Position numbers and translations under genes: made by a program. Shown here piece by piece: positions 41,376 through 54,442 of a DNA stretch of 64,000 nt (its first letter is position 1; each line of letters opens with the position of its first letter). The DNA is from Candidatus Latescibacterota bacterium (GTDB lineage: Bacteria > Latescibacterota > UBA2968). Under the pieces are notes generated by a model. It did no database searches and had not been told where the DNA came from. It saw nothing but the letters and a program-made list of their open reading frames with translations. The DNA is taken from positions 4,992,001-5,056,000 of the forward strand of contig OZ242195.1 in NCBI GenBank assembly GCA_965205975.1, written 5' to 3'.

Positions 41376-41404
41376 TAGACAATTGGTTGGTTTGGTGATA
41401 TAAT
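41376..41404 (+). promoter_or_regulatory. sigma70 promoter of the czcCBA-like operon
   Basis: TAGACA-17 bp-TATAAT with extended -10 TG; AGGAGG RBS downstream. Confidence 0.65.
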
Positions 41405-41449
41405 TAATTTTCCGGATTACTTTTGATTGTCACCACAGGAGGATGATTG

Positions 41450-42703
41450 ATGCTCAAACTATGTTATCGACACGCCTTCGTATTGTGTGGCCTGATATTG
41501 GTGTCCTGGACGACATTGGTCGCTGAGACAACGGTGCTGGGAGATGCCCGGGCCAGTGTCGCGTTAACGCGTTTTGTGCAAGCTGTTGTCGATTCCAATC
41601 CCCGTGTGCAGGCAGCACGCGCGGGTTTAGAAGCGAGCAGTGCGCTTAGAGATGCCGCGTCGCGTCCCCTCTACAATCCCGAATTGTCGCTGGATGCTGA
41701 GAATGCACAAGCCAGGATACGTACACTATCGTTTAGTCAAACGCTGGATTGGGGTGGCAAACGCAAGGCGCGTACCGCAGTGGCAGAATTAGACCGTCTC
41801 GTTGCCGAGGCGGAGTACTTGGATGCCCGATGGACGGTTGCGGTAGATTTGTTCAATGGTCTCGCGCTATATCAAACAGGCGTTGAACGCAGTCGTCTGG
41901 CCCAAACGCGGCAGCAGTTGATGGAGGAGTATGCGGCGTTGGCGAAGCGCCGGTTTGAGATCGGCGAGTTAGACCAGATGGAACTCGATCAGGCACTCCT
42001 TTCGTTGACAGAGGCGCGTATTCAAAAAGCAATGGCGGCCGCCGATTTGTCCGAGGTGCGGCAAGCGGTGTACAACCTTGTTTCGCGAACACCCGAGGCG
42101 CAGTGGCCTTCTCTTCCCGCAAAACTACCAGAGTTACCTGGGCAAAATGCTGATCCAAAGGTGCTGGTGCAGGCATTACCCGAGGTTGTAGCTGCACAGC
42201 ACCGGGTCAATATGGCTGATGCTGTGGTTGCACTGAGGCGACGCGAACGTCGTCCAGATCCAACCCTGAGCCTCACTGGAGGGTACGAAGATGGCGAAAG
42301 GCTAATCGGTTTGGGTCTGTCCATTCCGCTTCCGATCCGGAACCGCTTTGCACATGAGGTTACCGCGGCTATGGCGGAGCGTGATCAGGCCCAGAAACTT
42401 GCAGATGATACGGTACAAATGGCGCAGGCCTTTCTGGTTGGTGCGGCAGAGCGCTACGAGTTATCGCGCAGTGCCTGGGGCGAGTGGGAGCAGTTGGGGC
42501 GGAAAAGTCTGGACCGACAAAGCGAGGAACTGCGCCGACTCTGGCAGGCTGGGGATCTCAGTACAGCCGACTATTTGGCACAATTGGAGCAAACGATACA
42601 TGTGCGAGAAAGTGCCCTTGATCTGCACAGTCAGGTATGGCGTGCCTGGTTCGAATGGCTTCTCGCAGCGGGACAGGTAGATGCCTGGCTCGGTCTTAGA
42701 TGA
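41450..42703 (+). CDS. TolC/CzcC-family outer membrane efflux protein
   Basis: signal peptide, NPRVQAARA, YNPELSL, SIPLPIRNR; first gene of an OMF-MFP-RND triad. Confidence 0.85.
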   Translation: MLKLCYRHAFVLCGLILVSWTTLVAETTVLGDARASVALTRFVQAVVDSNPRVQAARAGLEASSALRDAASRPLYNPELSLDAENAQARIRTLSFSQTLDWGGKRKARTAVAELDRLVAEAEYLDARWTVAVDLFNGLALYQTGVERSRLAQTRQQLMEEYAALAKRRFEIGELDQMELDQALLSLTEARIQKAMAAADLSEVRQAVYNLVSRTPEAQWPSLPAKLPELPGQNADPKVLVQALPEVVAAQHRVNMADAVVALRRRERRPDPTLSLTGGYEDGERLIGLGLSIPLPIRNRFAHEVTAAMAERDQAQKLADDTVQMAQAFLVGAAERYELSRSAWGEWEQLGRKSLDRQSEELRRLWQAGDLSTADYLAQLEQTIHVRESALDLHSQVWRAWFEWLLAAGQVDAWLGLR

Positions 42704-43839
42704 ATTACAACACACAAAAAACCGCATTGGAGGCCCTGATGACGATGCTGAAATTTTGGGCGATGTGTCTGTGTTTGATACTGATCCAGCCGATGTATGC
42801 CGAGGAAGCTGATCATGATGCGGCAATTGAACTGAGCGCAGAAGAACAACGCGCGGCGGGTATTGTTATCGGCATGGTTGAACCTCGCGCGCTCAATGAA
42901 ACCCTGCGGATTCCGGGCGAGGTCGTGATCAACGCGTACCGATCTGTGCTCGTTACGCCGCGCATTACAGCACAGGTTGTGGCGCGTCATGCGAAACTCG
43001 GCGATGAAGTCGAAGTCGGTCACCCTCTGGTGGCGCTCTCGAGTGTTGAGATGGCCGAGGCGCAAGGAGCATTGATTGTCGCGAATCGAGAATGGCAACG
43101 CGTCAAGACCCTTGGTCGGCAGGCCGTATCGGAACAACGCTATACCGAAGCACATGTTGCACAACAACAGGCTCTCGCCAAAGTGCTCGCTTATGGCATG
43201 ACCATGGTTCAGGCAGAGGCACTTATGCAGTCGGGAGATGCCAGCAAAGCGACCGGTACCTTCGACTTGCTCGCTCCACAAGCGGGCACGGTGCTACAGG
43301 ACGATTTTATTGTCGGTGAATTGATTGAACCTGGCCGGATACTCATGAGTATCAGCGACGAATCAGTGATGTGGGTGAAAGCACATATGGTGTTGACCGC
43401 GTCATCCAAAATCGGTATTGGTGCCAATGTGCGGGTTATCCCCGATGGTATCAACTGGTTTCCGGGCAAGGTCATTCAACTTCATCACCACCTCGACGAA
43501 AAGGTCCGAACTCAAGGCTTGCGCATTGAGGTGCCCAACACGGCTCATAGCTTGCATTCGGGTCAGTTTGTCGAAGTAGAGGTTGTCACCGGAACGCGCG
43601 CACCAGTACTCGCTGTGCCGAGTGCGGCATTGATAATGGTCAAAGGCTCACCGAGTGTATTCAAGATCGAGGACGGACACGAGTTCCATGCCGAGGCTAT
43701 TGAGTTCGGTTCCACGGTGGGCGAGTGGACGGTCGTTCGCAGCGGGCTTATTGCAGGTGATGAGATTGCCATAAGCGGCGTTTTTCACCTCAAATCATTG
43801 ATGCTCAAGTCTTCGCTTGGCGCAGGTCATGTACATTAG
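42700..43839 (+). CDS. CzcB/CusB-family periplasmic adaptor (MFP)
   Basis: LLAPQAGTV, LAVPSAAL, GLIAGDEI; C-terminal GHVH. Confidence 0.88.
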   Translation: MNYNTQKTALEALMTMLKFWAMCLCLILIQPMYAEEADHDAAIELSAEEQRAAGIVIGMVEPRALNETLRIPGEVVINAYRSVLVTPRITAQVVARHAKLGDEVEVGHPLVALSSVEMAEAQGALIVANREWQRVKTLGRQAVSEQRYTEAHVAQQQALAKVLAYGMTMVQAEALMQSGDASKATGTFDLLAPQAGTVLQDDFIVGELIEPGRILMSISDESVMWVKAHMVLTASSKIGIGANVRVIPDGINWFPGKVIQLHHHLDEKVRTQGLRIEVPNTAHSLHSGQFVEVEVVTGTRAPVLAVPSAALIMVKGSPSVFKIEDGHEFHAEAIEFGSTVGEWTVVRSGLIAGDEIAISGVFHLKSLMLKSSLGAGHVH

Positions 43840-43848
43840 GAGAATTGC

Positions 43849-46800
43849 ATGTTGGAAGCACTGGTAAATACTTCTCTGCGCTATAAATTCCTGGTGTTGA
43901 TCGCCTTTGGAATCGTAGCTTTTTTGGGTTGGCGCGCGGTTGTAACCGTGCCGATCGATGCGTTTCCAGATGTGACGCCTGCCCAGGTCAATATCTATAC
44001 CGAGTCGCCCGGGCTTGCTGCTGAGGATGTGGAGCAACTCCTAACTTTTCCCATTGAGTCCGGTATGGCCGGGTTGCCGAAGGTGAAGGAGATCCGCTCC
44101 GTGAGTCTCTTCGGTTTGTCCTATGTCGCGGTCTATTTTGAAGACGATATGGATATCTACTTCGCGCGCCGTCTCGTGATGGAGAGGTTGCAGGAGGTAG
44201 GGGAGCGCATCCCAGAAGGTTATGGTACGCCAGAGATGGGTCCCAACTCGTCCGGACTCGGCCAGGTTTTCTGGTACACATTGGAACGGGCTGATGAAAA
44301 GCTCAACGCGGCGATTACCGACATGGACTTGCGGACGCTGCACGACTGGAACGTACGTTTGATCTTGCGAACTGCCCCTGGCGTTGATGATGTCATTTCA
44401 TGGGGGGGCCAGGAGCGACAATTTCAGGTTGTAATGGATCCCCTGAACCTCATCAAATACGACCTGACCTTCACCGATGTCATGGAAGTGATCGAGGCCA
44501 ATAACCGCCAGGTTGGCGGTCAATATATTAATCTCGGCTCAGAGCAGTACCTCGTGCGCGGTCTGGGTCTGGTCAGAGACGAGCGCGATATCGGCGATAT
44601 GGTCGTCAAGGTTGAAGGCGGCGCGCCGGTATATTTGCGCGATATTGCTGAAATCCGTCAGGGGGGGGCACTTCGTTTTGGCGCTGTGACACGCGATGGC
44701 AAGGAGGTTGTCCTTGGGATGGTGCTCTCGCGCATCGGTGAGAATGCCGCCAGGGTGGTTGAGGCGACGAAGGAAAAGGTCGCCATTATTGACCAGTCGC
44801 TACCAGATGGTGTCGTCCTGCGACCCGTTTATGAACGCACCGACCTCGTTGAAAAAGCAGTGGGTACGGCTACGAATGCACTGTTTCAAGGCGCGATTCT
44901 GGTGGGTGTTATTCTGTTTTTGTTTCTCGGCGAATGGCGACCAGCAGTGGTTGTGATTGTCTCTATTCCGCTCACGATGCTCATTGCATTTGTGTTCATG
45001 GATGAAGTGGGTCTCTCAGCCAATCTCATGTCACTTGCCGGCCTCGCCATTGGTATTGGCATGATTGTCGATGGTGCAGTGGTCGTCGTGGAGAATTCAT
45101 TTCGCGTCATGGCAGAACGCAGTGCAGAGACAGAGAAGGTCGATCGCACTGCTGCGGTATTGGCTGCTGCCCGCGAAGTCGTGAATCCGATGACCTTTGC
45201 TATCTTGATTATTGTGGTGGTATTTCTGCCTTTGTTTGCGCTCGAGGGACTGGAGGGCAAGCTGTTCAAGCCGATGGCGTTTAATATCACGTTTGCCATG
45301 GGTGGGAGTTTATTGCTCGCGTTGACATTGATTCCCGTGCTCGCGGCTTTGTTATTAAAACCGCAAAGAGAACGCGAAACATGGCTCATACGTGTCATTA
45401 AACCGCGCTATCTATCCTTGCTTTCCTGGTCATTGGAGAATCGAAAAGTGGTGGTTGGCTGTGCCGTGGGTTTGCTCGTTGTGAGCATGGCACTGTTCCC
45501 TTTTCTGGGAAAAGAGTTCATGCCGCAATTGCAGGAAGGGTCAATCATGTGGCGCGTAACTTCGATACCTTCGGCTTCGCTTCAGCATTCAATCGAGATT
45601 TCCAAGGATATCGAGAACGCGTTGTCGAAATTCCCGGAGGTCGAAACTACGGTGGCAATGATTGGTCGGGCAGAGAAAGGCGAGACCGCCGACGCCAATT
45701 ACATGGAGATTTATACTGCACTCAAGCCCGAGAGCGAATGGCCCGGAGACCGCGATATAAAAGAGCTTGCCGAGGCTATGCGCGAGGAGTTGGAAGTGGT
45801 GGTGCCGTCGGCTGTTATCGCTTTTACTCAGCCAATTCAGATGCGCGTAGAGGAACTGATCTCTGGGGTTCGCGCCACGCTTGCCGCCAAGATCTACGGT
45901 GAAGATTTGGCAGTGCTCGATCAGTTGAGCGAGGCGGTCAAAGATGTCATTGCCGAAGTTGAGGGTGTGGCGGATCTTTCGGTTGAGGCCAATGTCGGCA
46001 AGCCGCAGATCCGCATTCAGGTCAAGCGCGAGCAACTCGCGCGTTTTGGGTTGAATGCGGACGATGTGTTGTCCGTTGTGCGCACGGGTATCGGCAATGA
46101 GCCGGTTACGACCATGATTGACGGCGTGCGCCGCTTCGATATTACGGCGCGATTCGATGACCGATCAAAAGCATCGGTGAAGTCGATTGAGCGCATTCCA
46201 CTGAAAACAAGCGATGGCGCAATCGTTCCTCTCGCGACTGTTGCAGATGTCAGCGTTGCGGAAGGTTACTCTTTTGTGCGCCGCGAGCAATTGCAGCGTT
46301 ACGCAGTGATCCAGATGGATGTGCGAGGGCGCGATGTCGATGGCTTTGTGCGCGATGCCAATGCGGCTATCGATGCACAGATTGACTTGCCTCCGGGCTA
46401 TTGGATTGAGTGGGGTGGTGCGTTCGAGAATCAACAGCGGGCGTTGGCGCGTTTGTCGGTGATCGTGCCGTTGACGATTTTTTTTATTTTTGTGTTGCTC
46501 TATACGGCATTTAATTCGGTTAAGTACGCCGCGCTGATTATAGCCAATGTGCCGTTTGCGACAATTGGAGGGATGGTGGTCCTTTTCTTTAGTGGACAAT
46601 ACGTGTCGGTGCCTTCGGCGATTGGATTTATCGCGGTGTTTGGCGTGGCGATGTTGAACGGCATTGTGTTGGTGAGTTTTATCAATGAGTTGCGCGAAAA
46701 AGGACTCGGTGTTGCAGAGGCTGTGCGACGGGGGGCGGAGTTGCGTTTGCGTCCAGTTTTGATGACCGCGAGTACGTCCATTCTCGGATTGGTGCCCTTG

Positions 46801-46938
46801 TTATTGGCGACGGGTGTTGGTGCCGAAACACAGCGTCCACTCGCTTCGGTGGTGGTCGGCGGTTTGATCACTTCGACGTTGTTGACACTCGTGTTGCTGC
46901 CGGTGATCTACGAGTGGATTGAGACGCGACGGCAGTAA
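43849..46938 (+). CDS. CzcA/CusA-family heavy-metal RND efflux pump
   Basis: PIDAFPDVT, ANLMSLAG, EGKLFKPMA, GFIAVFGVAMLNG, RLRPVLMTA. Confidence 0.93.
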   Translation: MLEALVNTSLRYKFLVLIAFGIVAFLGWRAVVTVPIDAFPDVTPAQVNIYTESPGLAAEDVEQLLTFPIESGMAGLPKVKEIRSVSLFGLSYVAVYFEDDMDIYFARRLVMERLQEVGERIPEGYGTPEMGPNSSGLGQVFWYTLERADEKLNAAITDMDLRTLHDWNVRLILRTAPGVDDVISWGGQERQFQVVMDPLNLIKYDLTFTDVMEVIEANNRQVGGQYINLGSEQYLVRGLGLVRDERDIGDMVVKVEGGAPVYLRDIAEIRQGGALRFGAVTRDGKEVVLGMVLSRIGENAARVVEATKEKVAIIDQSLPDGVVLRPVYERTDLVEKAVGTATNALFQGAILVGVILFLFLGEWRPAVVVIVSIPLTMLIAFVFMDEVGLSANLMSLAGLAIGIGMIVDGAVVVVENSFRVMAERSAETEKVDRTAAVLAAAREVVNPMTFAILIIVVVFLPLFALEGLEGKLFKPMAFNITFAMGGSLLLALTLIPVLAALLLKPQRERETWLIRVIKPRYLSLLSWSLENRKVVVGCAVGLLVVSMALFPFLGKEFMPQLQEGSIMWRVTSIPSASLQHSIEISKDIENALSKFPEVETTVAMIGRAEKGETADANYMEIYTALKPESEWPGDRDIKELAEAMREELEVVVPSAVIAFTQPIQMRVEELISGVRATLAAKIYGEDLAVLDQLSEAVKDVIAEVEGVADLSVEANVGKPQIRIQVKREQLARFGLNADDVLSVVRTGIGNEPVTTMIDGVRRFDITARFDDRSKASVKSIERIPLKTSDGAIVPLATVADVSVAEGYSFVRREQLQRYAVIQMDVRGRDVDGFVRDANAAIDAQIDLPPGYWIEWGGAFENQQRALARLSVIVPLTIFFIFVLLYTAFNSVKYAALIIANVPFATIGGMVVLFFSGQYVSVPSAIGFIAVFGVAMLNGIVLVSFINELREKGLGVAEAVRRGAELRLRPVLMTASTSILGLVPLLLATGVGAETQRPLASVVVGGLITSTLLTLVLLPVIYEWIETRRQ

Positions 46939-46985
46939 ACGTCCGCATTTTTATTTCTTGCGGTGGGGAAGGTATTACCTTATTA

Positions 46986-47014
46986 TCCGAATAATTCGAA
47001 TAATCCGAATTATT
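46986..47014. promoter_or_regulatory. possible operator: three 9-bp direct repeats with a palindrome
   Basis: tccgaataa-ttcgaataa-tccgaatta; aataattcg/cgaattatt inverted repeat. Confidence 0.35.
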
Positions 47015-47105
47015 ATTATATGTGGTCAAAAAACTATGCTTCCCATCAGAGGGGGTGAGGGCTATTGATGCTCCAATTAATACAAGTATTGGCTTAATAC
47101 AAGCA

Positions 47106-49400
47106 GTGACCAGTTTCTTTGATTTTCTTGTGATGTCGTTCCTGTTGTTAGCGCCTATGCTAATGCTGGGGCTATTTCTTTCTGGTCTGATTCACGTATT
47201 TATCTCGCGTGAGGCCATTTTGCGGTGGTTGCGCGAAGATAGCTTGAAATCCGTGAGTACGAGTGCAGCCGTTGGCGTGCCCGTGCCGCTTTGCAGTTGC
47301 TCGGTTGTGCCAGTAGTTGCCGAGATGCGCAATAAGGGCGCGTCCCGTTCGTCCTGTATGTCTTTCTTGATTACGGCACCGGAGACAGGTGCGGACTCGA
47401 TTCTGGTCACGAATGCGTTCTTTGGATTCATCGCTGCTATTGTCAGGCCCTTCATCAGCTTTATTACCGCGGTCGTTGCCGGTATTTTTTGTATCGGTCT
47501 CATACGAGATGATAGCGACGAGGCCAGGGCGAGAGAGCACGACCATGATCACGACCATGACCACGATCATGACCATGACCACGATCATGATCACGACCAT
47601 GACCACGATCATGACCATGACCACGATCATGATCATGGGCACGAGCCTCTGGTGCCTGGAAGCGACGATTGCTACGTCAGTCCTTCACAGTTGAAGGCGT
47701 TGTTTTATTCCTGGTTGAAGGGACTAACTGAGGCGGTTAGCCAGCACAAATTCGGATCATGGGTGAAACCGGACTTTTATCGCGACATGCTTCCGGCTGA
47801 AGACAAACAAACTTCTGAGGATGATCCGTCCAAATACAAACACGATCTGGATTTTAAGGAGATCGTCAGGCATATTTTCCGCTATGGCTTTGTCGAGATA
47901 GCGGACGATATTCTGTTTGCGCTGCTCGTGGGCGTCGCACTGGGAGGCGTGCTCTATCTGGCGATTCCGAGCGACCTGATGTCCAATGAGTATGCGCGCT
48001 GGTTGTCCTACCCCGTTATGGTGCTGGTTGGTGTTCCTCTTTATATCTGCGCGTCCGCGAGTACCCCGATAGCTGCCGCGCTGGTCGCCAAAGGATTTAG
48101 TCCTGGTGCGGCACTGATTTTTCTCATGACCGGACCGGCGACCAATACGGGTACTATTGCGATTATCGTCAGTCAATTCGGGGCGCGCTTTGCGACTATC
48201 TATGTGTCAGCGGTGATCGCAGTGACCGTTGCTCTGGGCATTGTGATTGATATTGTGCTTCTCGCCATCGGCGTGACGGTTCCCCTGTATCTCGGTCCTT
48301 CGGAGTCAACGACTATTCAGCTCATACAATGGGGCAGTGCTTTTGCCCTGATTGCTCTGATCATCTGGCGGTTCCGCGCAGGTGCTTTTAAGAGCGGCTA
48401 TGAAGATTTGTTGCTCAATATCCGCCCTGTGGCCGAACCCTGTAAAGAGTTCTGGGGGCGCGTGACGCGCAACCGGTCTTTTGTGGGCATTATCACTCCT
48501 TCCACGCCGTTGGGAAAGACGTTTTACGGTCTGCTGATCGCCCTGTTTCTCGGTAGCGGTTTTACTGTGATTCCTCCCGGGCATGTGGGCTACGGTCGTC
48601 TGTTTGGCGCGGTTTACTGGCGAGACCTGCAGCCGGGGTTGCACTATCTCGCGCCCCGTCCCTTTGTGCGGGTGGATAAATGGCCGGTAAAAGAAGTGAA
48701 GTACATTACAAATGCGAATGCGTACGAATTGATTTCGGGCGATTTGAATATCCTCTCTCTTACCATCAATGCGCAGTACCGCGTAAAGGATGCCTATACG
48801 TATCATTACCAGATCCAGAACCCGAAAGAGATCATTAAAGATGCCATTAAGGATCATCTGCGCGAGTTTGTATCTGCCCGCAATCTGGATCATCTGCTCA
48901 GTGTTCACCGCGCAAAGCTGGAGCAGCATATCAGAGAATTGTTTGCGGGCGCTGTCGAGGCGTCGCGCCCGGTGTTCGAGAGCGTTGAACTAATTGATAT
49001 AAATCTGGTGAGTGTTAACCCGGCGGCAGAAACAATGAGTGCTTTTCGGGAAATCTCGAGTTCTCAGGAGGATCGAGAGCGGATCATCATCAATGCCCAG
49101 CGTTTCCTGACGTCGTTAGTTCCCCGTGCACATGGAAATGCGATTTACGAAGTGGAGCAGGCAAACGGCGAAGCGTTCAGAAAAGTGACCACTTCTGCCG
49201 CTGAAGCAGATGCGATAAAAGTCGTGGCTGCGGCAGTGAATCGCGCGCCCAATGTTCTCCAGACCATGCTGTGGCGGGAGAAGCTGGAAACCGCGCTTTC
49301 TGGCAATGCCAAGATTATCGTTCCCAACAAGCGGAGCCTCGAAAAGGTCGCGCTGTGGAAGAGTAAGCCAGCGAAGACAAACGCGAACGCCCAGCACTGA
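47106..49400 (+). CDS. SO_0444/DUF318-type metal permease with His-Asp tract, fused to a C-terminal SPFH (HflK-like) domain
   Basis: GVPVPLCSCSVVP, FLITAPETGADS, PLYICASASTP, GPATN permease motifs; then GFTVIPPG..PGLHY..ISGDLN..QYRV..AFREI..PRAHG SPFH pattern; start uncertain (GTG 47022, GTG 47106 or ATG 47133). Confidence 0.8.
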   Translation: MTSFFDFLVMSFLLLAPMLMLGLFLSGLIHVFISREAILRWLREDSLKSVSTSAAVGVPVPLCSCSVVPVVAEMRNKGASRSSCMSFLITAPETGADSILVTNAFFGFIAAIVRPFISFITAVVAGIFCIGLIRDDSDEARAREHDHDHDHDHDHDHDHDHDHDHDHDHDHDHDHDHGHEPLVPGSDDCYVSPSQLKALFYSWLKGLTEAVSQHKFGSWVKPDFYRDMLPAEDKQTSEDDPSKYKHDLDFKEIVRHIFRYGFVEIADDILFALLVGVALGGVLYLAIPSDLMSNEYARWLSYPVMVLVGVPLYICASASTPIAAALVAKGFSPGAALIFLMTGPATNTGTIAIIVSQFGARFATIYVSAVIAVTVALGIVIDIVLLAIGVTVPLYLGPSESTTIQLIQWGSAFALIALIIWRFRAGAFKSGYEDLLLNIRPVAEPCKEFWGRVTRNRSFVGIITPSTPLGKTFYGLLIALFLGSGFTVIPPGHVGYGRLFGAVYWRDLQPGLHYLAPRPFVRVDKWPVKEVKYITNANAYELISGDLNILSLTINAQYRVKDAYTYHYQIQNPKEIIKDAIKDHLREFVSARNLDHLLSVHRAKLEQHIRELFAGAVEASRPVFESVELIDINLVSVNPAAETMSAFREISSSQEDRERIIINAQRFLTSLVPRAHGNAIYEVEQANGEAFRKVTTSAAEADAIKVVAAAVNRAPNVLQTMLWREKLETALSGNAKIIVPNKRSLEKVALWKSKPAKTNANAQH
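47538..47636 (+). repeat. (His-Asp)16-His coding repeat with an exact 42-nt tandem duplication
   Basis: 33 codons alternating CAY/GAY; 47544-47585 identical to 47586-47627. Confidence 0.92.
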
Positions 49401-49415
49401 TAGGGAGAAAAGATT

Positions 49416-50303
49416 ATGACTTTCAAAAGAATTGTCACAGCCATTGTCGTAGTTTTTGTTGGTGTAATTGCGTATAGCTGTTTTTACACCATACATGAGA
49501 CCCAACAAGGCGTGTTGACCAACTTTGGCAAAATCTCGCCGCCCATCAAGGGACCCGGGCTGCATGTCAAATGGCCGTGGCCAATAACGAAGGTGTACAA
49601 GGTTGATCGGCGCATTCAGACCCTCAATGGCCTTACCCATGAGTTGATTACGGAAGACCAGAAGAATGTCCTGGTTGACGGTTATACGATGTGGCGTATC
49701 GATGATCCCATCAAGTATGTCGAAGCCATTCGAACCGATGTAAATGCCGTTGAGCGTTTGCAGGAACTCTATTTTGCGAGTAGCGGTATTGTCATCAGCA
49801 ATAGGGCACGCGATGCGTTTATCAGTCTGGGGCTGGAACACGAAGATCTGCATGAGGCGTGCCGCGAGATGCACAACAGGATCGCGCCAATCGCCAAAGC
49901 CAACTATGGGATTGAGGTGATACGGGTCGGTATTGTCGAATACACCTTGCCGGTGGAGAACCGCCCAAGCGTGATCCAGCGAATGATTTCCGAGCGTGCG
50001 CGCATTGCCACCCGCTATCGCAGCGAGGGTGAGGAGAAGGCGATAACCATCGAGGCTCTTGCCATCAACGAGCACGAAAAAATTATGGCCGACGCCCATG
50101 CAGAAGCAACGACGATTCTCGGCAATGCCGAGGCCCAGGCAATGGCAGTGCTGGGCAAAGCCTATCGGGAAGATCCGGAGTTCTACAAGTTCATCCGCGC
50201 ACTCGACAGCTACGATCTGATTATTGACAAAAACACGACGCTCATGCTGCCCGCAGATAGTGAATTATTCAAATATCTGGACAGCAAATCTATACCCAGG
50301 TAA
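49416..50303 (+). CDS. hflC: HflC-like SPFH protein
   Basis: single TM, PGLHVKWP, ITEDQKNVLVD, WRIDDP, RMISER, RSEGEE, DPEFYKFIRALDSY, SELFKYL. Confidence 0.85.
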   Translation: MTFKRIVTAIVVVFVGVIAYSCFYTIHETQQGVLTNFGKISPPIKGPGLHVKWPWPITKVYKVDRRIQTLNGLTHELITEDQKNVLVDGYTMWRIDDPIKYVEAIRTDVNAVERLQELYFASSGIVISNRARDAFISLGLEHEDLHEACREMHNRIAPIAKANYGIEVIRVGIVEYTLPVENRPSVIQRMISERARIATRYRSEGEEKAITIEALAINEHEKIMADAHAEATTILGNAEAQAMAVLGKAYREDPEFYKFIRALDSYDLIIDKNTTLMLPADSELFKYLDSKSIPR

Positions 50304-50312
50304 GATGGGGCT

Positions 50313-51635
50313 ATGACGATGAACGAACAACAACCATTACCGCGCAGTACGCGCATGATCTACGCCGCGTTTGATTTCGTTGGGCAGTATCCCAAAAGGC
50401 GAATTCTCACAGTGCTCGCCGCGATTGTCGTCGCTGTGGTGTTGGGCAGCGGGTTTTATATTGTAGAGAAAGAGGAAGAGGCTGTGGTTCTGCGTTTCGG
50501 GAAGGTAGTGGTGACGGATATCGGTCCCGGGATACGCTACTGCATCCCCATTATCGATGAAGTTCAGATTCGCAAGGTCAAACGGATCGTCCAGCATCAG
50601 ATAGCCAGTAAGAGCGGCGGCACAGCCAATTTTACAATATTGTCTGGGGACACGAACCTGTTTGAGGTGGATATCGCCCTTCAATACCGGATAGATAATT
50701 TGCGGAATTTTCTATACGCATCTACCGACCCTCTTCAGGTGGTCTCCATGCTCTTGCGGGAAGAGTTGATCAATATCATGGGACAAAATTTTATTGATCT
50801 AATCCTGACTTCCAACCGCAATATTATTCAACACCACCTGTTGCACGAGATTGCCGACCTTCTCGAAGAATATGACGTTGGCATAGAGGTCGTTTCTCTC
50901 AACATCGTTGATATAAGCCCGATTGCAGAAACGATTGCTGCATTCCGGGATGTCAACGATGCGATTGCCGAGCGTGCGCAAGCAGAGAGCAATGCCAACC
51001 GCACGCGGGAGAAGATGATCGCGCACAGCAGGGGACAGGCGGAGGCCGTGGTGATGGACGCCCACGCCAGGGCACGGGAACGCATTGTGCAGGCTCAAAG
51101 CAGTGCCGACGCATTCCGCGCTCTGCTCGTCGAGTACAAAAGTCAACGAACGCAAGTGGCTATCACGCGGTATTGGCAGCGCATGCGCACGATTTTCTCG
51201 GAAGCGAGTCTGTCGGCGGTCAATCCCCGCAATGAGGCGACAATCGATATCAATATGATAGAAGGTCTCGCGGCGCACACACCCGTGGACATGTTGCTGG
51301 ACGCGCCTTCCGGTGATGCTGTCGAGAGGCCCTCTTTTTCAACGGCGCGACAGAGGGATACACATAATTTTGAAAATGTCGAAGAGGACAAACACTTGCT
51401 GGACGGGCAATTCCACAAAAGGCGCGTGGAACGCCATCACCAGAGAGTCGCCAATATGAGATCGCTGATATTCGACATGCCCAGTGTATTTTCTCATGAG
51501 CACACGTCAACCCATCCCCTGACCACCGTGCGACAGGCAGACCAGCAGGCGGTGATTGAGACGAAAGCTGCAGAAAGCGTGCAGGATAGCAGCAAAACCG
51601 TGGATAAGGAGAAAAAAAGTGAGTCTGCTCAATAA
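50313..51635 (+). CDS. hflK: HflK-like SPFH protein with an extended C-terminal tail
   Basis: SGFYIV..VVLRFGK, LSGDTN, QYRI, AAFRDVNDA, SRGQA; about 120-aa low-complexity tail with scattered His. Confidence 0.75.
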   Translation: MTMNEQQPLPRSTRMIYAAFDFVGQYPKRRILTVLAAIVVAVVLGSGFYIVEKEEEAVVLRFGKVVVTDIGPGIRYCIPIIDEVQIRKVKRIVQHQIASKSGGTANFTILSGDTNLFEVDIALQYRIDNLRNFLYASTDPLQVVSMLLREELINIMGQNFIDLILTSNRNIIQHHLLHEIADLLEEYDVGIEVVSLNIVDISPIAETIAAFRDVNDAIAERAQAESNANRTREKMIAHSRGQAEAVVMDAHARARERIVQAQSSADAFRALLVEYKSQRTQVAITRYWQRMRTIFSEASLSAVNPRNEATIDINMIEGLAAHTPVDMLLDAPSGDAVERPSFSTARQRDTHNFENVEEDKHLLDGQFHKRRVERHHQRVANMRSLIFDMPSVFSHEHTSTHPLTTVRQADQQAVIETKAAESVQDSSKTVDKEKKSESAQ

Positions 51636-52860
51636 GCCCATATCGACGGGCATAGCTTCCTGTCTCATCCTGCTGGTGCTCACCCTGCCCTCTGCGGCGG
51701 CTCCGGGAATTACTGATAGTACGATCGTGTTCGGGCAAACCGCCTGTTTCTCGGGACCGAACAAAAATTTGGGTTTGTGGTATCGAGCCGGCATTTTGAC
51801 CGCTTTTCAGGAACAGAACGATCGAGGCGGGGTGTATGGCAGGTTGTTGAGGCTCATTTCTGTAGATGACGCGTACGAGCCTGATCTGGCAGCCGCGAAT
51901 GCAGAGATGTTCGCTTCCCAAAACAATGTGTTCGCCGTCATCGGCGGCGTGGGAACGCCGACTGCCAAGCGCATTGTACCCGTGCTGCGAACGGCTCAGA
52001 TTCCCTTTGTGGGACCGTTTACAGGAGCCGATTTTCTGCGCGATGCTAAAAAGTATCCAAATATCATCAATCTGAGGGCTGGCTACTTTGACGAGATCTA
52101 TGAACTGGTCCATCACATGATTGACGATCTCGGCAAAAGTCGTTTTGGCATTATATATCAGGATGATGCGTTTGGGCGTTCCGTCTTGAGAAACTACAAG
52201 GCGATTCTCGATAGTCGCGAACTTCCCTTACTGGCGAAGACCTCCTACTCGCGGAACACACATGCCGTCCATGCGAGCCTGTTCGCATTGGATAAAGCCG
52301 ATCTGGACGCTATCCTGATAGTGGGAGCCTATGCCGCCAATTCGGAAATTATCAATCTGGCCAATTCTCTGGGACATAAATACATAATAGCCAATCTGTC
52401 CTTTGTTTTATCTCGCGAACTGAAGAAGAGGATCAATACGCTGAGTGATAAAATTCTGGTGACCGAGGTGATGCCCGACGCGCAAGACCTGAGTAGTCAT
52501 GTCGTGCGACAGTTTCAACAAGCTATAAAATCTTTACCGGAAGACCACGCGCACGAATTCAATGAAGTATGTCTGGAGGGGTATATATTGGGTCGATATC
52601 TCATCGCTGTGTTGGAGCGTATGGGCGGTGAGTTGACGGGCGTGCTGCCAACGTCATTGCCACAGGAATACAAAACAGAAGTGTTGGAGCGTATGGGCAA
52701 TGAGTTGACGCGAGATCGGTTCTTAAAAGATGGCATGTCGCCAGCTAAGCCTGTCGTGATTGGCGATTGGGTCATTCATTTCAAATCCGGTGAGAACAGG
52801 GGTTCGAGCTACATCAGGTTGACCCATCTGGGTGGCGGTCATTCTGCAAAGGGAGAATAA
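51619..52860 (+). CDS. type I periplasmic ligand-binding protein (branched-chain amino-acid SBP-like)
   Basis: signal peptide, DDAYEP, GGVGTPT, GPFTGA, YQDDAFG; GTG start after AAGGAG overlapping the hflK end. Confidence 0.8.
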   Translation: MSLLNKPISTGIASCLILLVLTLPSAAAPGITDSTIVFGQTACFSGPNKNLGLWYRAGILTAFQEQNDRGGVYGRLLRLISVDDAYEPDLAAANAEMFASQNNVFAVIGGVGTPTAKRIVPVLRTAQIPFVGPFTGADFLRDAKKYPNIINLRAGYFDEIYELVHHMIDDLGKSRFGIIYQDDAFGRSVLRNYKAILDSRELPLLAKTSYSRNTHAVHASLFALDKADLDAILIVGAYAANSEIINLANSLGHKYIIANLSFVLSRELKKRINTLSDKILVTEVMPDAQDLSSHVVRQFQQAIKSLPEDHAHEFNEVCLEGYILGRYLIAVLERMGGELTGVLPTSLPQEYKTEVLERMGNELTRDRFLKDGMSPAKPVVIGDWVIHFKSGENRGSSYIRLTHLGGGHSAKGE

Positions 52861-52863
52861 TCC

Positions 52864-53355
52864 TTGAAGAATATAGACGAATTTTCTGTCGAAGAGATCG
52901 GCGAAGAGTGGTTGCGCGAGCTTTATAAGGTTGTTGCTCTGCGGCGCGGTACCATGTTCAGAATGATTACCGAGACAGCGCGCCTGTTGTTATTTGGCAA
53001 TGCGGGCGGTGCCGCGTTGATTATCGGTTTTATGAGTGCATCCACAGGTAGTGGTGAAGATCCCGCTTATCACTGGGCTTCCTTGCTGACACTGCTCATG
53101 TTTGCGGTGGGAACGCTTGGATCAGCTATGGCAATGATCATGGTCGCCGTGGTCTCGGTAAAAGAAGCTCACGGTGCGGAGAATGCATTGAAACGGTTTG
53201 TCGATGGCGAGATCGACCGAACACAGGTGATGTTTACGGTCGAAGAACAGACTTTTCGCCTGGCCAATTACGCCACGGCGTCCGGTGTGGTCAGTTCTGT
53301 GGGATTTCTACTTGGTGGATTGAGCAGTATTATTCTGTTGGTCCTGTTCTTCTAA
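52864..53355 (+). CDS. hypothetical membrane protein (3 TM)
   Basis: LLLFGNAGGAALIIG and two further hydrophobic segments; GGGAG RBS, TTG start 3 nt after the upstream stop. Confidence 0.65.
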   Translation: MKNIDEFSVEEIGEEWLRELYKVVALRRGTMFRMITETARLLLFGNAGGAALIIGFMSASTGSGEDPAYHWASLLTLLMFAVGTLGSAMAMIMVAVVSVKEAHGAENALKRFVDGEIDRTQVMFTVEEQTFRLANYATASGVVSSVGFLLGGLSSIILLVLFF

Positions 53356-53480
53356 TAATAGTCTCGATGGTAGGCGTACTGAAAGTGCCTGTATCTGTTT
53401 CTTTTTTCCATCCATTCCAATTCTTCACACCCATCCTAACCCAGATTACCATTATGAGCCAGGTTCCGATTTAAACCACT

Positions 53481-54356
53481 ATGGATTTAAATTTTTTGCT
53501 CCTTTTGTTGGGATACTCCCTCGCTATCCTTGCCGCGTCTTTGTTCGGTGGATATCTGCCGACAATCGTTACGATGACGCATACGCGCATCCAGATGGTG
53601 ATGAGTTTTGTCGCGGGTTTCATACTTGGCGTCGCGCTGTATCATCTCCTGCCGCACGGTCTGGTATTGATTCCCGGGCCGGATGCTGTCGAAAAGGCTG
53701 TGGGATTGATGATGTTTGGCATCATTCTGATGGTATTGTTGTTGCGTATCTTCCATTTTCATCAACACGAATTTGGCGACGAAGCAGGTGATTTTCACCA
53801 CGATCATGACCACGATCATGTCCACGAGCATGAGCATGCCAGTCCCGAGAGCAGGTTGATCGGTGTTTGTCTGGGGTTGGGGTTGCATACGATGACCGAG
53901 GGTATTGCTCTGGGTACCAGCATCCGGGTTGGTGAAATACATGGGGGCGAAGCCGGTTTAGCGGGTCTCGGGGTGTTTCTTGCGATTCTTTTGCATAAGC
54001 CACTCGACGCGTTTTCCATTATCGGTTTGTTGCAGGCCGCTGGTCATAGTCTCCGCACTCGTATAGCAGTCAATATCGGATTCGCCATGCTCTGTCCGGT
54101 AGTGGCTTTGTTGACTTTTTGGGGGATTGGGTTTTTGGGACACTGGGAGGAAGAGGTGGTCGGTTATGTGCTGGTTCTGGCAGCCGGCGCGTTTCTGTGT
54201 ATTTCGCTGAGCGATCTGTTGCCGGAAATCCATTTCCACAGTCACGATCGCGTCAAGCTCACTGTGTGCTTCCTCATGGGGATTGCGCTTGCGTATGGGC
54301 TGTATTTTATTGAGTCCGGAGCGGTGCACGGGTTAGAGATGCACGAAATGCATTGA
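53481..54356 (+). CDS. ZIP (ZupT)-family metal transporter with His-rich loop
   Basis: HLLPH, HFHQHE..HHDHDHDHVHEHEH, LHTMTEGIALG, LHKPLD, SDLLPEI. Confidence 0.88.
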   Translation: MDLNFLLLLLGYSLAILAASLFGGYLPTIVTMTHTRIQMVMSFVAGFILGVALYHLLPHGLVLIPGPDAVEKAVGLMMFGIILMVLLLRIFHFHQHEFGDEAGDFHHDHDHDHVHEHEHASPESRLIGVCLGLGLHTMTEGIALGTSIRVGEIHGGEAGLAGLGVFLAILLHKPLDAFSIIGLLQAAGHSLRTRIAVNIGFAMLCPVVALLTFWGIGFLGHWEEEVVGYVLVLAAGAFLCISLSDLLPEIHFHSHDRVKLTVCFLMGIALAYGLYFIESGAVHGLEMHEMH

Positions 54357-54385: not shown

Positions 54386-54420
54386 AAAAGGCGGTCTATC
54401 AGGCGATGGATCGCCTTTTT
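54386..54420 (+). terminator. Rho-independent terminator closing the metal cluster
   Basis: aaaaggcggtctatc-aggc-gatggatcgccttttt. Confidence 0.65.
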
Positions 54421-54442
54421 GCCAATCCATAAAGGAGACGTT

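Follow-up and report, generated by a model that had tools for sequence, protein, structure and literature searches.

In a 64,000-nt stretch of DNA (the window) from Candidatus Latescibacterota bacterium (assembly GCA_965205975.1, contig OZ242195.1), we found that a metal permease of the SO_0444/ArsP type is fused to an HflK-like SPFH domain (K1) and is followed by genes for an HflC-like protein (C) and for a second, unfused HflK-like protein (K2). We consider it on balance probable that K1, C and K2 assemble into an SPFH cage in the periplasm, one dedicated to a metal transporter instead of to FtsH, and that this cage serves divalent-metal, probably zinc, homeostasis. The triad is accompanied by genes for a periplasmic binding protein (PBP), a protein with three transmembrane (TM) stretches (the 3-TM protein) and a ZIP transporter:

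47022-49400, + strand: permease::SPFH fusion (SO_0444/ArsP permease and K1), 792 aa in a single frame; NF033936 and Band_7
49416-50303, + strand: hflC-like gene (C), TIGR01932 score 179.8 (cut-off 134.4), triad clade
50313-51635, + strand: unfused hflK-like gene (K2), TIGR01933, under the cut-off
51619-52860, + strand: secreted LIV-type (class I) PBP, PF13458; longest open reading frame (ORF) from 51556, likely start 51619
52864-53355, + strand: 3-TM protein, 163 aa, three hydrophobic stretches, conserved
53481-54356, + strand: His-rich ZIP transporter, PF02535, 82 bits

A sequence-only reading of the window had described a run of nine co-oriented genes, these six behind czcC-, czcB- and czcA-like genes, with short or overlapping spacers from the permease to the 3-TM gene; an ORF check of the window located all nine on the + strand where that reading had placed them. 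The spacers measure 15 nt between the fusion and hflC and 9 nt between hflC and hflK; hflK and the PBP gene overlap, 3 nt separate the PBP and 3-TM genes, and 125 nt lie before ZIP.

The fused protein passes the family cut-off of NF033936 (SO_0444) with 324.9 bits (cut-off 300) over residues 40-448, and Band_7 matches residues 516-693. Along its length we distinguish a permease (residues ~30-450), a basic linker (~450-500), a TM helix (~500-515), the SPFH domain (516-693) and a coiled coil. The permease part has two repeats with conserved Cys-x-Cys motifs in both halves, as judged from hydropathy, alignment and a low-confidence model, and carries a His-Asp loop at residues ~172-207 that holds 5-33 His in homologues. 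The positive-inside rule suggests that the SPFH domain of the fusion is periplasmic, with an HflK-like topology, and that the linker is presumably cytoplasmic. As in HflK and HflC, the SPFH domain of the window proteins stands behind one N-terminal TM helix, and the SPFH part of K1 is one of the two HflK-like proteins of the window that score 149 and 128 against TIGR01933 (HflK), both under the cut-off of 159.4. In the structure model, the SPFH part resembles HflK/C structures (Z 11.3-11.6), and the permease part matches ArsB (Z 9.8, root-mean-square deviation 5.1, 265 residues aligned), VcINDY, YdaH (Z 9.1) and TRAP SiaQM (Z 8.0), where Z values of 8-9.8 are in the range usual for helical bundles and the model has a predicted local distance difference test score (pLDDT) of 55.8.

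We found 569 homologues of the fusion. The fusion is no assembly artefact, because both Pfam domains are present in 117 of the 120 homologues listed, which are 61-92% identical to it; their source names are Gemmatimonadota, Opitutae, Latescibacteria and Gammaproteobacteria. With a profile search, both domains were present in 118 of the best 150 clusters (clustered at 50%), whose identity to the window fusion is 23-67% (median 28). Sequence comparison indicates that the permease::K1 fusion is old. A scan of genome contigs was dominated by the His-repeat pattern and yielded nine mostly distant loci, and no permease::SPFH fusion was found among 72,556 plasmid records. Two of the genomes (G025 and G028) have stop codons inside the fusion match.

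Among the partner proteins, C scores above the TIGR01932 equivalog cut-off, yet it falls outside the canonical HflC clade. K2 ends in a C-terminal tail of ~130 residues (120-180 across homologues), in which H351, D359, H368, E373, R374, H393 and H395 are invariant in 22 aligned rows and H376 is nearly so. This long His-bearing tail is confined to K2 of this clade; the tails of K proteins in other triads and in canonical pairs are short or His-poor. The PBP is nearest to LIV-type proteins (best match in the PDB 4kv7, E 1e-40) and is not a ZnuA-type metal binder; at window positions 52608-52681 it contains an insertion in which a short stretch is duplicated (VLERMG...LT twice) and which most homologues lack. 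The 3-TM protein matched no Pfam or NCBIfam family and no DctQ, only unnamed clusters. ZIP is a frequent and old partner of the permease and is also seen at loci that have the permease only. A complex prediction with C, K2 and the SPFH part of K1 had a median of 0.34, and a control with K2 replaced had 0.53, which gave no verdict.

To define what travels together, we compared 76 loci from relatives and metagenomes: 47 with the full fusion, 22 with the permease only and 7 cut at a contig end. Counts were made on loci with enough downstream sequence: 4.2 kb or more for full-fusion loci (39 qualified and 8 did not) and 1.5 kb or more for permease-only loci (21 qualified and 1 did not). C, K2, PBP and 3-TM protein were all present in 39 of 39 full-fusion loci, or 22 of 22 after de-duplication at 90%, and in 0 of 21 permease-only loci. 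ZIP is found at both kinds of locus (23/39 and 11/21), and czcA lies near 16 of the 39 full-fusion loci at 40% identity or more and near 7 of them as a close match (at least 70%). In relatives of the same genus that lack the SPFH block, the permease stops near residue 470 and abuts ZIP; czcCBA is intact in two of these (L043 and L044), reduced to czcC alone in three (L045, L046 and L048) and gone in one (L047). The SPFH domain, C, K2, PBP and 3-TM protein are thus gained or lost as one block, and czcCBA varies independently. The block is accessory, not core, and the permease persists without it: operon-type hflC is present in 7 of 21 genomes of the window's own genus and in 25 of 168 of its phylum. 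One further locus (L042, in G039) has a fusion cut at about residue 663 and has lost C, K2, PBP and 3-TM protein, a partial erosion of the block.

Relation to housekeeping HflK/HflC and triads in other phyla

An ordinary hflK-hflC pair lies elsewhere in the genome, at C1:3.718-3.720 Mb, and its proteins are 28-32% identical to those of the window, so the window pair is not the genome's only copy, and the window SPFH set is an extra paralog set apart from the housekeeping hflKC. It is a triad, so it differs from the two-gene hflK-hflC operon of canonical modulators. The lack of ftsH in the window is uninformative, because the single ftsH of the genome adjoins neither hflKC set. In an unrooted HflC tree (LG+C20; 54 of 77 rows, 23 near-redundant ones dropped), 18 canonical proteins from two-gene loci, including those of E. 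coli and the housekeeping copy, are split from 36 triad proteins with support of 97/98; the same split was recovered (94/96) with a less complex model and 43 of 59 rows. In a FastTree phylogeny (103 K and 59 C rows), neither K1 nor K2 fell within the canonical K group, at a weak support of 0.71. The HflC of the window clade is on a long branch (1.75) and its placement relative to the Planctomycetota permease triads is 90/80, unstarred; the permease fusion may have had one origin or two, both being compatible with that placement.

In E. coli, FtsH is bound via HflK, and R141A/E142A/R185A is reported to lower pull-down (PMC13220708). At HflK position 185, a basic residue is present in 18 of 22 canonical proteins, 3 of 16 K1 and 3 of 16 K2. 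At position 189, 20 of 22 canonical proteins have an acidic residue, and 14 of 16 K1 and 16 of 16 K2 have a basic one. As aligned, the contact residues lean against FtsH binding by the triad.

Full-length fusions were also found in 9 of 151 genomes in the phylum of a Rhodopirellula metagenome-assembled genome (MAG) and in 6 of 51 in the phylum of a Nitrospinaceae MAG; we call these phyla Planctomycetota and Nitrospinota after the record titles. All nine Planctomycetota permease loci have the order permease::K1-C-K2 and none has PBP or 3-TM protein; in eight, a His-rich ZIP-like gene lies directly 5' (PF02535 in 4 of 4 tested). The four Nitrospinota loci examined have the five-gene core behind a ZnuA gene, with K2 in two pieces in L167. 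Overall, a ZnuA-like gene is present at 13 of 97 loci and is directly upstream and co-oriented at 10. There was no czc match within 3.5-5 kb of the nine Planctomycetota and four Nitrospinota triads. A gene for an STT3/AglB-type oligosaccharyltransferase stands right after K2 in two of the Planctomycetota permease triads (L151 and L153).

The best plasmid match to the window HflC belongs to an hflK-hflC-hflK-PPIase-heavy-metal ATPase cluster of Aquibium oceanicum (L103, NZ_CP018172.1 16552-25241), whose first HflK is a CDF::SPFH fusion. This CDF::K1 has 1732 homologues, the best 120 of which all have Cation_efflux and Band_7, and three further CDF::K1 triads occur in Planctomycetota (L163-L165). 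These four CDF triads are twice accompanied by a large PPIase and a heavy-metal ATPase, their fusions are annotated just as HflK, and an M28 peptidase-PDZ gene lies behind K2 in L163 and L164.

In Verrucomicrobia, we examined 20 loci that were picked by hand from an HflK search for paired or long matches. K-C-K triads make up 18 of them, and every triad comes with a P-type ATPase: in 15 its gene immediately follows K2, and in 3 (L108, L110 and L112) the ATPase forms the front part of a fusion with K1; neither of the two two-gene loci has one. Three more ATPase::K1 fusions occur in Planctomycetota (L160-L162). The CPC motif, described as a mark of heavy-metal pumps (PMC8456098), is present in 19 of 23 triad ATPases. 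With the CDF::K1 and ATPase::K1 fusions, three unrelated metal-transporter families (ArsP/SO_0444, CDF and P1B-ATPase) therefore share one position on one subunit, K1. The ATPase::HflK fusions are ~1000 aa long, and three of them (L110, L112 and L160) stand behind a large protein of the two-component-regulator-propeller type (weak Pfam match). In another set of Verrucomicrobia triads (L109, L111, L114, L116-L119, L121 and L123-L125), K1 has a 7-TM domain of no family, and genes for an ABC-2-type permease and an ABC ATPase are found on the flanks.

The sequence-only reading had proposed a dedicated three-subunit SPFH assembly, and had named as refuting it a pair that clusters with canonical FtsH modulators and is the genome's only copy, or a linkage to metal transporters that is not conserved. 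None of these was found at the sequence level: the triad HflCs stand apart from the canonical FtsH-modulator group, the set is distinct from the housekeeping hflKC, and its linkage to metal transporters is conserved across phyla. The system is also broader than that reading had recognised.

Surroundings and signals of the locus

The remaining features of the locus lie on either side of the conserved unit:

41376-41404, + strand: sigma-70-like promoter match with extended -10, 11/12, 5' of czcC; similar in same-genus relatives
41447-46938, + strand: CzcCBA-like HME-RND pump, a co-oriented neighbour outside the conserved unit
41447-42703, + strand: czcC-like gene of the CzcCBA-like HME-RND pump, OEP family
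42700-43839, + strand: czcB-like gene, TIGR01730 score 107.7 (above 94.9)
43849-46938, + strand: czcA, TIGR00914, 1078 bits (cut-off 701)
54386-54422, + strand: intrinsic-terminator-like hairpin with U-run, 3' of ZIP

The CusA/CzcA pump, the adaptor and the outer-membrane channel are in one operon, as expected of an HME-RND CzcCBA system; the czcB-like protein scores below the cut-off of the CzcB-specific TIGR00999. A further CusA/CzcA-like pump, 33% identical to the window CzcA and accompanied by an adaptor, is encoded about 7 kb ahead of the window (L002, G000:C1:4980366-4984606), and the same genome has two hflX genes and two paralogues of the window PBP. Promoter matches number 17 in total against 15.9 expected, so the one upstream of czcC is to be judged by its position and conservation. 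The terminator that the sequence-only reading had seen after ZIP holds up as a hairpin of -23.9 kcal/mol with a U-run (z -4.0; equalled by 0 of 200 shuffles), and it is absent from the terminator list of the consensus scan. That reading had also noted that the window has no ftsH, hflX or metal-responsive regulator. This stands for the families searched, since ftsH, hflX, Fur, ArsR and MerR gave no match in the window; two-component, NikR and CsoR regulators were not searched for. In particular, no ZntR-type regulator (MerR-type search, window) adjoins the permease, and by eye there is no conserved regulator box upstream of the fusion.

At the start of the fusion (window 47040-47110), the Shine-Dalgarno-like GGGGTGAGG precedes the TTG/ATG of a 10-codon ORF in the +1 frame (47065-47097). 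The in-frame start options, ATT at 47064 and GTG at 47106, are both downstream of 47022, and the true start is probably one of these. The arrangement of Shine-Dalgarno-like site and short +1 ORF is repeated in six same-genus relatives, and it represents either a rare ATT start or translational coupling.

Base composition has no island signal, with GC content similar to that of the host. Metatranscriptome contigs of relatives cover 27-30 of 30 operon bins in four runs, and one contig runs from the fusion to ZIP; in the run with this spanning contig, depth is flat across the terminator and there is no silent control, so we do not count coverage as transcription. Contigs of relatives occur in runs labelled sponge metagenome, and proteins 95-97% identical to the window HflC bear the source label Gemmatimonadota MAG.

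Proposed cage and alternative explanations

In the arrangement we favour, K1, C and K2 would build a ring of alternating K and C subunits, as in the 24-subunit HflK/C of E. coli. K1 would tether several permeases inside the enclosed membrane patch via its basic linker (residues ~450-500), and unfused K2 would serve as a spacer at the K positions left over: an E. coli-type cage would have too little room for twelve fused 9-TM permeases and enough for a fraction of them. Two K genes may be kept in every triad because not every K position could hold a 9-TM transporter. The His tail, a feature of K2 in this clade, would keep metal beneath the dome. Such a cage could cluster, stabilise and shield the transporter (perhaps ZIP too) and buffer metal at the periplasmic face. 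The direction of transport leans to low-zinc use, by analogy with P. aeruginosa genes that are induced by zinc shortage and from the ZIP and ZnuA neighbours; the efflux phenotype of SO_0444 and the czc genes often nearby point the opposite way.

Several observations weigh against the dedicated metal cage. The assembly, its stoichiometry and a place of the permease inside, not outside, the ring are predictions from sequence, and the structure model of the fusion is of low confidence (pLDDT 55.8). The PBP is of an organic-ligand (LIV) type, for which a model based on metal alone has no explanation. The block is dispensable, since operon-type hflC is found in a minority of the genus and phylum and permease-only relatives are common, and deletion of a P. 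aeruginosa triad is described as giving slight phenotypes only, with no metal stress mentioned in the available text (PMC13086221). The FtsH contacts 141/142 vary everywhere, canonical HflKs included, and ATPase-linked K subunits often keep R185, so FtsH binding may have been retained. Finally, our choice of Verrucomicrobia and Planctomycetota loci was made from hit lists and is not a blind sample, and kin among them are not independent.

We regard as unlikely that the triad is a specialised FtsH adaptor, that is, that it still houses FtsH and that through the fusion the protease is presented with the metal transporter, for quality control or for turnover that depends on metal. In favour, each of the three subunits is homologous to HflK/HflC, FtsH is present in trans (the canonical hflKC being likewise unlinked to ftsH), K1 retains K/R at 141 and R193, and a discussion of PA2437-39 mentions that the zinc protease FtsH has HflK/C as partners (PMC11761036). 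However, the genome already has a canonical pair, the triad HflCs fall outside the canonical group and positions 185/189 differ; moreover, tethered transporters would occupy the membrane space of FtsH hexamers, and a substrate fused to its own modulator would drag a cage subunit into degradation. The sequence-only reading had suggested metal buffering and hand-off to the RND pump; that the cage buffers exported metal and passes it to the adjacent CzcCBA for efflux we think improbable. A co-oriented czcCBA behind one promoter-like site, some czcA near a part of the full-fusion loci and the report that SO_0444 is required under Zn/Cu stress (PMC3219624) would fit such a hand-off. Against it, close czcA is scarce at full-fusion loci and varies in position and strand, czcCBA is intact in two relatives without the SPFH block and eroded to czcC in three others, and czc is missing around the Planctomycetota and Nitrospinota triads. 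In our judgement the czcCBA/RND link is incidental to the system.

That the elevator-fold permease, the LIV-type PBP and the 3-TM protein together import an organic ligand or metal chelate like a TRAP transporter, with the dome keeping the PBP near the transporter, would explain why PBP and 3-TM protein are strictly co-lost with the SPFH genes, and the permease part does match the ArsB, VcINDY, YdaH and SiaQM folds. We give this importer little credence, since these Z values are usual for helical bundles and come from a low-confidence model, the binding protein is class I LIV-type and not DctP/TAXI, the 3-TM protein does not match DctQ, and both are absent from all nine Planctomycetota permease::K triads. 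Least probable is that there is no special function and that stress or membrane-scaffold paralogs hitch-hike on mobile islands that carry metal genes, with a fusion that is tolerated operon read-through. Patchy presence and repeated loss would be expected of such passengers, and the host-like GC content speaks neither for nor against them, but in several phyla the same fusion position is used by three unrelated transporter folds and the fusion is retained down to ~25% identity. We also considered an anti-phage role and rejected it: four proteins had no meaningful PADLOC match, and a Pycsar-like neighbour in the atlas (0.80) is at chance level.

Beyond the dedicated cage of the window, we put forward more tentatively, as conceivable though short of probable, that there is a widespread, unrecognised class of three-subunit SPFH cages that act as a modular 'periplasmic antechamber' for metal transporters. 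At least three unrelated folds would be plugged in via K1, K2 would set the number of transporters per ring, and in the clade of the window the His tail and PBP would concentrate metal or metal chelates under the dome. If true, bacterial HflK/C-type cages would here have their first role that involves no protease. The roles of SPFH cages beyond FtsH are an open question, and it is difficult to identify their clients; in these fusions the gene itself gives away the client, in three independent cases, and the idea that an SPFH cage organises a transporter microdomain becomes directly testable. It also flags a mis-annotation, as such proteins are recorded as 'FtsH protease activity modulator' or 'Cu/Zn efflux transporter'.

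Comparison with known systems

The sequence-only reading knew of no characterised system with this architecture. For function this still holds; however, an operon of three SPFH genes with a metal ATPase next to it has been published for P. aeruginosa (PMC4542158, PMC11761036, PMC13086221). There, PA2437-PA2439 and hmtA (PA2435) are reported to be 9-14-fold up in zinc shortage, with a weak Zur site (PMC4542158, PMC11761036). The three-SPFH operon is described as patchy, likely transferred and dispensable in the conditions tested, with no function ascribed in the available text (PMC13086221), the main text of which has 0 occurrences of 'ATPase' or 'hmtA' and so leaves the metal-ATPase neighbour unmentioned. 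PA2437-PA2439 are probably PaFlo5-7 of PA14. As at the window locus, three HflK/HflC-type genes are clustered with a metal transporter, apart from hflKC; in contrast, the transporter there is a separate P1B-ATPase, whereas here an ArsP/SO_0444 permease is fused and a His-tailed K2, PBP, 3-TM protein and ZIP are present. We make this likeness from published gene descriptions, the P. aeruginosa sequences being outside our trees. The PA2437-39/hmtA cluster is the closest precedent, and our reading offers a specific hypothesis for these orphan zinc-induced genes. New here are the K-C-K triads with a CDF or P1B-ATPase fused at the same position and with ZIP or ZnuA genes on the flanks. Our search of the open literature, which did not extend to supplements or subscription papers, turned up no transporter::HflK fusion, and in a 2009 SPFH survey 'metal', 'transporter' and 'ATPase' have 0 occurrences (PMC2636767).

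The FtsH-HflK/HflC cage of E. coli (7vhp, 9cz1), described as 24 SPFH domains enclosing up to four FtsH hexamers (PMC12048511), shares with the triad the SPFH fold, the single TM anchor and the K and C types. Unlike it, the triad has three subunits, one of them fused to a transporter, a non-canonical HflC, both K under the TIGR01933 cut-off and an altered FtsH-contact helix. Shewanella SO_0444 (NF033936, ArsP_1/DUF318), reported to be needed under Zn/Cu stress with an efflux phenotype (PMC3219624), resembles the window permease in family cut-off, Cys-x-Cys motifs and His-rich loop; the window permease differs in its C-terminal SPFH fusion and in having no adjoining ZntR-type regulator. Plasmid hflK-hflC-nhaA clusters (L105 and L106; Vibrio and Paracoccus) likewise have an extra hflKC copy adjoining a transporter, but they consist of two hfl genes without a fusion, and their HflC nests in the canonical group with some Verrucomicrobia pairs. 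Human stomatin, whose dome is reported to enclose AQP1 and UT-B (PMC12407830), is a precedent, being like the proposed cage an SPFH oligomer around transporters and not around a protease. Stomatin is a cytosolic, eukaryotic homo-oligomer with non-covalent clients, whereas the window set would be periplasmic, with three subunit types and a covalent client.

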